Under the pieces are notes generated by a model that was not told the DNA's origin, did no database searches, and saw only the letters and a list, made by a program, of their open reading frames with translations. 64,000 nucleotides of DNA from Rhabdochlamydiaceae bacterium (GTDB lineage: Bacteria; Chlamydiota; Chlamydiia; Chlamydiales; Rhabdochlamydiaceae). Below, piece by piece: positions 5,100 to 5,465 of the stretch (its first letter is position 1; each line of letters begins with the position of its first letter). The stretch covers positions 159,759 to 223,758 of the forward strand of contig JAJREF010000003.1 in NCBI GenBank assembly GCA_047459655.1. The letters run 5' to 3'. A program made the translations under genes and the position numbers.

Positions 5100-5465
5100 T
5101 TAGTTTTGGAAAACTTTCGGATGATTAGCGCCTTTAGCACAGTGCATGATCAAATGCAATACATCATCGATAGATGCACGCGCAAAAGGTCCGCCAGTAT
5201 TTCCATTTTCATAGTGCCAGCCTTCTGGGCTCAGAGTGATGACAAAAGGTCTATGTTCTATGGTTAGATCTGGGCGAAGAAATGTAACGTAGTAGCTCAT
5301 TACACTTTCTCCAGCTCTTAGCAGATAGAGATACGGGGTTTTTCTTCCTCTTAATAACTTTTCTGCGGCTAATCCAGATAGGCTTTCATGCCATGCTGGA
5401 TGATCGGCTATCTCTTGCTCTATAGAGCTCAAGTAGTGGGTCTGTTCTTTCAATAAAGTAGACAT
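5100..5465 (-). CDS. Stand-alone SH2-domain-like protein
   Basis: WHESLSGLAAEKLL...YLYLLRAGES...YYVTF...TIEHRPF matches the SH2 pattern W(Y)HG.(I)S...AE.LL...FLVR.S...Y.LS...V.H. Confidence 0.75.
   Translation of the reverse strand: MSTLLKEQTHYLSSIEQEIADHPAWHESLSGLAAEKLLRGRKTPYLYLLRAGESVMSYYVTFLRPDLTIEHRPFVITLSPEGWHYENGNTGGPFARASIDDVLHLIMHCAKGANHPKVFQN

Follow-up and report, generated by a model that had tools for sequence, protein, structure and literature searches.

A stand-alone SH2-fold protein family of Chlamydiota encoded beside a predicted ACT*–OppA fusion gene and a MATE-family exporter gene

What might a stand-alone protein resembling SH2, a module familiar chiefly from signaling in animal cells, be doing between two transporter-like genes of a chlamydial genome? 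This question is raised by a small gene in the window, i.e., the whole stretch of 64,000 nucleotides that was analyzed from a Rhabdochlamydiaceae bacterium (contig JAJREF010000003.1). The protein in question, P0001 (121 aa), is encoded on the minus strand at 5465–5100, from ATG to TAA. All of the motifs that a preliminary description had named for a stand-alone protein of ~121 aa are present in the 5465->5100 translation. An AGGAG ribosome-binding-like motif (5474..5478, minus strand) lies 8 nt before the ATG, within the 3' end of the partner gene upstream. The stop codon of that partner lies 2 nt before the SH2 start, and the ATG of a MATE-family exporter gene is found 2 nt past the SH2 stop. 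A promoter/terminator scan of the locus returned 4 promoter-like sites, compared with 13.7 expected. The genome (G000) carries a single copy of the SH2 gene, whose ORF is intact in the window, unlike those of both neighbors. Comparison with three close homologues gave a dN/dS of ~0.18–0.22, which indicates that the P0001 ORF is a real gene; as judged from these alignments, it is under purifying selection in the close clade.

Taken alone, P0001 does not reach the formal Pfam threshold for SH2 (PF00017; 13.3 bits, E 0.093, cut-off 21 bits), phmmer against the PDB gives E 0.15 (to SHP-1), and NCBIfam has no family for it. A database search with P0001 yielded 49 candidates, of which 43, including P0001 itself, are family proteins of 92–139 aa. 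The Pfam check is therefore split: P0001 alone is sub-threshold, but 39 of the 43 members match PF00017 at E≤0.1 (best 1.4e-6), and a precomputed PF00017 match exists for three close homologues. The family profile matches SHP-1 at E 6.2e-5, and a 69-sequence profile finds 91 PDB sequences at E≤0.01 (best 9.1e-7), the best 60 of these 91 all being SH2-containing. In addition, the AF2 model of P0001 (mean pLDDT 86.6) has the order helix–three-strand sheet–hairpin–helix, which is SH2 topology, with an extra N-terminal helix predicted at residues 2-20. The central antiparallel β-sheet flanked by two helices that defines the SH2 superfamily is seen in the predicted model and in the fold searches. 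A Foldseek check of this model, one of those originally suggested, returned 130 matches at E≤0.001, headed by the ZAP-70 SH2 (E 4.7e-5). With VIA-align, the best 50 rows are all SH2-containing chains, led by SOCS1 (Z 10.9, rmsd 3.2 Å over 107 residues) and including Spt6 (Z 9.6) and Legionella RavO (Z 8.5). No SH2 donor stands out, as the leading Z-scores lie within about 1 of one another; LeSH is absent from these best 50 rows, which excludes nothing. Collectively, profiles at the family level, the model, Foldseek, and VIA-align all point to SH2, and the fold is settled so far as prediction allows.

The three-gene arrangement is partly obscured by the state of the assembly. The MATE-family gene (3733..5097, minus strand), directly downstream of the SH2 gene, encodes ~457 aa in relatives and is in pieces here. 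The partner gene (5468..8480, minus strand), directly upstream, encodes ~996 aa in intact relatives (family range ~1,000–1,170 aa) and is spread over three frames in the window. Single-base gaps occur in the partner gene near 8140 and 6322 and in the MATE gene near 5030, 4539, and 4235, all five of them near runs of 4–6 identical bases. Contigs from run X1, which may be the source sample of the assembly, have one more base at 4539, 5030, and 6322; position 8140 falls between contigs, and the gap at 4235 is common to both. The genome is 82% complete, and other genes are split as well (e.g., a PheT-like one). Since other genes are also split and X1 contradicts three of the gaps, most of the breaks are likely to be assembly errors. 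Two further minus-strand genes in the window (8675-9448 and 10547-11179) encode proteins that contain coiled coils and a hydrophobic segment and match no specific Pfam family; we take them, from their pattern only, to resemble inclusion-membrane-type proteins.

The locus had been described as a transporter operon. The downstream gene is indeed a MATE exporter, but the supposed OppA upstream is a ~1,000-aa fusion protein with neither signal peptide nor membrane helix, composed of three predicted ACT-like domains, two helical motifs, and an OppA-like SBP_bac_5 domain. The last of these forms the C-terminal half (E 1e-71 to OppA in PDB 8ARE), and databases label the protein as a peptide ABC binding protein. 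It shares the SBP_bac_5 domain with OppA/DppE peptide-binding proteins and differs from them in having no signal peptide, no recurring permease or ATPase neighbor (none at the 24 listed loci, as judged from their ORFs and from Pfam scans of some genes), and an altered R-x-x-W-x-x-D stretch. The N-terminal hydrophobicity maximum is 0.28–1.81 in 24 partner proteins versus 2.5–3.2 in four neighboring OppA lipoproteins, and all 24 sequences lack a signal peptide and a membrane helix, as judged by hydropathy rather than by a dedicated signal-peptide predictor. The Arg and Asp of the OppA stretch, which presumably anchor peptide termini, are replaced in the partner by Leu/Met and mostly Trp. OppA and DppA form ion pairs with peptide termini, according to the available text of PMC10924461. 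The cassette is bounded by varying genes at L033–L055 (ORF lists and partial Pfam scans), and it is not an ABC importer operon.

The N-terminal half of the partner matched no Pfam family, with no GDH_ACT among the families listed (25 of 31; 40 members), and a PDB sequence search gave a single match (E 1.2). Its model (pLDDT 83.7) contains three ββαββα units and two helical motifs, and its best fold match is to the regulatory part of large glutamate dehydrogenase (Foldseek E 1.4e-5; VIA-align Z 9.5, rmsd 3.0, 108 aligned); the Atlas likewise gave large glutamate dehydrogenase (0.86, a lead only). The ACT* domains of that enzyme have ββαββα topology and are possible metabolic sensors (PMC8175468, as far as its accessible part goes). 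The partner thus resembles the N-terminal segment of large glutamate dehydrogenase, with its ACT* repeats and helical motifs, and differs in having an OppA-like domain in place of the dehydrogenase domain. GarA, a small regulator of large glutamate dehydrogenase, has an FHA fold and compares with the SH2 protein by analogy only. SgrR is a cytoplasmic SBP-fusion regulator; both it and the partner are SBP fusions, with no DNA-binding family detected in the N-terminal half of the partner. We also considered that this half might be a GlnD/GlnE-type nucleotidyltransferase making Tyr-NMP as a mark to be read by the SH2 protein, and rejected this, as no such fold was among the matches listed and no motif was seen.

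At E≤1e-60, the ACT*-repeat domain family occurs in 356 of the 400 Chlamydiota genomes and in none of the 29 that belong to family f4. Elsewhere in the genome of the window (G000:C1:536746-539263) and at L127-L130 there is a stand-alone ACT*-repeat gene (~650–700 aa, without the OppA part), which in all five loci overlaps or closely follows a short aspartokinase-like ORF; the kinase at L128 (258 aa) has AA_kinase only and no ACT domain. On this gene order, the stand-alone protein may be a separately encoded regulatory subunit, and the adjacency of such a paralogue to an ACT-less aspartokinase fits amino-acid sensing. A longer fusion form (~1,135–1,165 aa), with ~170 extra N-terminal residues, was observed at L058, L060-L068, and L073. 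Ordinary OppA lipoprotein genes often adjoin this longer form, which suggests that the fusion arose from a neighboring oppA.

With respect to distribution, the SH2 family was detected in 76 of 400 Chlamydiota genomes with a narrow profile and in 96 of 400 with a wide one (E≤1e-5), genome G005 being left unscored; family f4 had no match in its 29 genomes, and named relatives are mostly Chlamydiales and Parachlamydiales MAGs. Among the best 150 library matches, 71 are ≤200 aa, and the other 79 are long proteins of at least 626 aa in which short matches recur many times. These 79 were treated as artefacts; the four that were inspected are repeat proteins matching one strand motif only. No fused SH2 form was found among 7,992 scored candidates of 276–2,000 aa, which is weak evidence; lengths of 213–275 aa lay outside the range covered for the query. 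A second chlamydial SH2-like family, found mostly in f7, consists of proteins of 273–287 aa with a C-terminal SH2 or of 117 aa alone, keeps the Arg, and shows no link to the sensor–exporter cassette; members are encoded at L069:3565-4386 (over the Pfam cut-off at 22.5 bits), L071:4114-4977, and L072:3526-3879.

Is the SH2 gene bound to its neighbors, or did it merely land there? We analyzed 98 SH2 matches at E≤2e-14 in 72 genomes (39 weaker of 137 rows were omitted) against 125 of the best 150 matches to the N-terminal half of the partner, beyond which lie 460 further matches. A partner ACT-like match lies within 6 kb of 84 of the 98. The remaining 14 comprise 4 with a fusion gene, 5 with MATE only (three at contig ends), 1 with an OppA-like part at a contig end, 1 at a contig start with neither partner visible, and 3 orphans (L077, L085, and L086). 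At least one cassette partner is therefore present beside 94 of the 98 strong SH2 matches, a count that overstates the number of independent events because the genomes are kin. The frames are closely packed: in 16 of 19 close-clade loci the SH2 gene starts −4 to +9 nt from the stop of the fusion gene, and in 8 of 13 the MATE gene starts −4 to +3 nt from the SH2 stop. Distances between SH2 proteins correlate with those between partners (Spearman 0.65), which shows co-inheritance only.

Flanking genes vary between most cassette loci, and after rearrangement the SH2 gene is on the same strand either as MATE (L058, L059, L075, and L076) or as the fusion gene (L060–L068); the SH2–cassette link survives inversions. 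These data bear directly on the idea that a host-derived SH2 gene landed once in the operon and was kept for expression, in a role unrelated to its neighbors. Such a history would accommodate the patchy distribution (96/400 genomes), the three orphan genes, cassettes that lack SH2, and the degenerate look of the most divergent copies. We nevertheless regard it as very unlikely, since the linkage outlasts both inversions and large divergence (mean SH2 identity 33% across 41 cassette pairs), is kept with either partner in turn, and is accompanied by purifying selection in the close clade. The earlier suggestion of an intrabacterial role gains real support, short of proof, from this conserved linkage.

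The link is looser when viewed from the partner. Among the listed partner-domain matches, 45 have no SH2 match; 40 of these were fetched and consist of 38 fusion genes and 2 of the stand-alone form. For 27 of the 38 fusion genes (3 of them ending at a contig edge), no SH2-like neighbor was seen, and in 8 SH2-less cases among the 38 a MATE gene lies directly beside the fusion gene. Since SH2-less cassettes occur, the SH2 protein is an accessory, dispensable part. The other 11 have a divergent SH2-like ORF, without the βB5 Arg, directly 3' of the fusion gene (L092, L094, L095, L096, L105, L106, L107, L110, L111, L112, and L117). Support for these ORFs is good at four loci (L095, L096, L110, and L111), moderate at two (L094 and L106), and weak or by eye at the other five, and the iterated profile is circular for the nine ORFs that were built into it. 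The ORF at L110 has two domains, as L105 and L106 possibly do.

An intact phosphotyrosine pocket had been implied. Position names below follow SH2 nomenclature, checked against p85 and RasGAP alignments. The elements noted before, namely W25-H26, AEKLL (34-38), YLLR with R50, IEH with H71, and Gly31 at αA2, are all present in P0001. Its residues at the positions of interest are Trp25 (βA), Gly31 (αA2), Glu35 (αA6), Arg50 (βB5), Tyr59 (βC3), Thr61 (βC5), His71 (βD4), and Pro73 (βD6), with W83-x3-N87-G88 in the βE/EF loop and M107-H108-C109 at the end of αB. The implied intact pocket does not hold, however, since neither αA2 nor βD6 supplies a second basic residue and the βB5 Arg is lost in divergent members. 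Two classes of SH2 domain have been distinguished by where the basic residue that accompanies Arg βB5 lies, at αA2 or at βD6 (PMC7530234, in the portion available), and P0001, with Gly and Pro at these positions, fits neither the Src-like nor the SAP-like class.

Conservation depends on the set considered. In the close clade, Arg50, His71, and Ser/Thr61 are present in 43 of 43 sequences and Glu35 in 41, along with αA2 Gly (43/43) and βD6 Pro (42/43). In the wider set, Arg βB5 occurs in 64 of 69 and a bulky Tyr/Phe at βC3 in 59 of 69. Among 41 cassette-linked SH2s, W25 and N87 are invariant (41/41 each), H71 is kept in 38 and C109 in 34, and Arg βB5 in 31, a few of the 10 non-Arg calls possibly being alignment slips; αA2 is basic in none of the 41 and βD6 in one. 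Outside the core, the residues kept best lie in the βE/EF loop and at the end of αB, i.e., on the specificity-pocket side. From this pattern we infer that phosphotyrosine reading is not the core function across the family, and the invariance of Arg βB5 in the window's clade makes a weak phosphate or carboxylate contact possible there. Separately, His22, His108, Cys109, and Cys114 are conserved in 62, 57, 60, and 49 of 69 sequences (the window protein has Asn114); as a residue pattern, these are a possible metal site or disulfide.

P0001 shares with eukaryotic SH2 domains (SOCS1/2, p85, ZAP-70/Syk, PLCγ, SHP-1/2; PF00017) the fold (Z 8–10.9), Trp βA, Arg βB5, His βD4, and Ser/Thr βC5; its additional N-terminal helix has an aligned counterpart in the matches to SOCS and Spt6, and SHP-1 shares the Gly at αA2. 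It differs from them as a stand-alone bacterial gene product with 5–27% identity, and the chlamydial family has Gly-Glu after the Arg rather than the Glu-Ser of the PDB sequences aligned to its profile, an aromatic βC3, no basic αA2/βD6, and members that have lost the Arg. The Spt6 tandem SH2 (PF14633; fold Z 8.9–9.6), in which the Arg pocket serves a purpose other than pTyr binding, comes closest among the named Atlas clusters (0.87, a lead only), yet PF14633 is matched by 0 of 43 members, and the chlamydial protein is single-domain and bacterial.

A genuine phospho-reader working inside the bacterium would involve a Hanks-type kinase that phosphorylates the fusion protein or MATE at a Tyr, Thr, or Ser, to which SH2 would bind via Arg50. 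The genome has 9 Pkinase matches, 8 of them over the cut-off, and a Hanks-type kinase gene lies just downstream of MATE (1900-2991, minus strand). We considered that gene as a cassette part and set it aside, as it is not a recurring neighbor. The pocket residues retained in the close clade (Arg50, His71, Glu35, and Ser/Thr61) would suit such a reader, as would conserved partner tyrosines (e.g., in FRDYNGG, 36/41), and the Spt6 SH2, which reads pThr by the same Arg according to the accessible text of PMC7530234, is among the near-tied folds. Against this, no kinase recurs beside the cassette in ORF lists and in Pfam scans that covered some neighbors, no BY-kinase match over the cut-off was found in the 82% complete genome, βC3 is bulky, and the Arg is gone from divergent members. 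We rate this reading as quite improbable.

Could the protein instead be an effector secreted by the type III route to bind phosphotyrosine proteins of the host, its gene being no more than a companion of the cassette? Chlamydiota are intracellular bacteria, and the genome has a FHIPEP-family export-gate gene. The N-terminus is variable across the family, and residues 2–16 are rich in Ser/Thr/Asn (0.28 vs 0.17 background). SH2 paralogues are duplicated in tandem at L034, L051, and L068, and the close clade keeps Arg βB5 throughout. The best-known parallel is found in Legionellales (LeSH, LUSH, RavO, and DoSH), which likewise provide bacterial SH2 proteins from an intracellular bacterium, RavO matching the P0001 fold at Z 8.5. 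In the parts of PMC6208348 available, these are mostly translocated effectors (RavO and, of the 9 further Legionella SH2 proteins tested, 7) with high-affinity pTyr binding, achieved in LeSH by the βB5 and βD6 Arg, loss of the latter abolishing binding. The chlamydial family, in contrast, has neither second basic residue, has lost Arg βB5 in 10 of 41 cassette-linked members, and sits in a conserved sensor–exporter cassette with abutting frames. Moreover, the enrichment at the N-terminus is only mild (P0001 is equaled or exceeded by 9% of background ORFs, and partner N-termini are also raised, at 0.22), and the start of P0001 is predicted to be helical. On balance, we think it unlikely that the protein is such an effector, although this is the leading alternative to the reading that follows.

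We propose instead that the SH2 protein serves in the cytoplasm as an accessory adaptor to a module of metabolite sensor and exporter, reading phosphate weakly or optionally, and consider this about evenly poised between right and wrong. The proposal builds on the predicted fold, the conserved linkage, the abutting frames, and the absence of a signal peptide from the partner, and is favored by the persistence of Arg-less SH2-like ORFs directly 3' of the fusion gene. SH2 domains of the JAK family bind partners without pTyr, as described in the part of PMC7530234 that is accessible. Counting against it are the SH2-less cassettes, the three orphan genes, the tandem duplications, which are common for effectors, and the N-terminal composition, compatible with a type III signal, together with the FHIPEP gene. 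A complex prediction of SH2 with partner alignment residues 5–893 scored 0.00 with unfolded controls, which counts neither for nor against the proposal.

In the proposed mechanism, the fusion gene, SH2, and MATE would be co-translated, and the SH2 protein, acting inside the bacterium, would recognize a short peptide motif in either the fusion protein or MATE. Through its ACT-like domains and the altered cleft of its OppA-like part, the fusion protein would sense a small metabolite such as an amino acid. SH2 would dock mainly by its specificity-pocket side (the W-x-x-x-N-G loop and M-H-C motif) and, once docked, would tune the coupling between sensor and exporter; in the window's clade, Arg50 may add a weak phosphate or carboxylate contact to the docking. 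In broader terms, and with somewhat less than even confidence, we postulate that environmental chlamydiae have domesticated SH2 as a subunit of a cytoplasmic module of their own, consisting of an ACT*-OppA sensor, an SH2 adaptor, and a MATE exporter.

A conserved chlamydial SH2 family in a three-gene cassette is apparently undescribed. Some members already carry automatic Pfam SH2 labels, and we found no description of the family in the titles and abstracts searched, with most subscription papers outside that scope. All 93 bacterial SH2 domains reported in the available parts of PMC6208348 come from Legionellales; searched by term, neither its main text nor two of its supplements mention chlamydiae, and its other supplements could differ.

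A second bacterial SH2 family, from another phylum and tied to a bacterial sensor and exporter, would widen the known roles of SH2 and make testable how an SH2 domain works with one basic pocket residue or none. The analysis also exposes a ~1,000-aa ACT*–OppA fusion that is labeled as an ordinary peptide ABC binding protein, and an ACT*-repeat family without a Pfam model. If the proposal is true, no SH2 before this one would have been shown to serve bacterial physiology instead of acting on a host, and the Arg-keeping and Arg-losing clades would form a natural series from phospho-dependent to phospho-independent docking.
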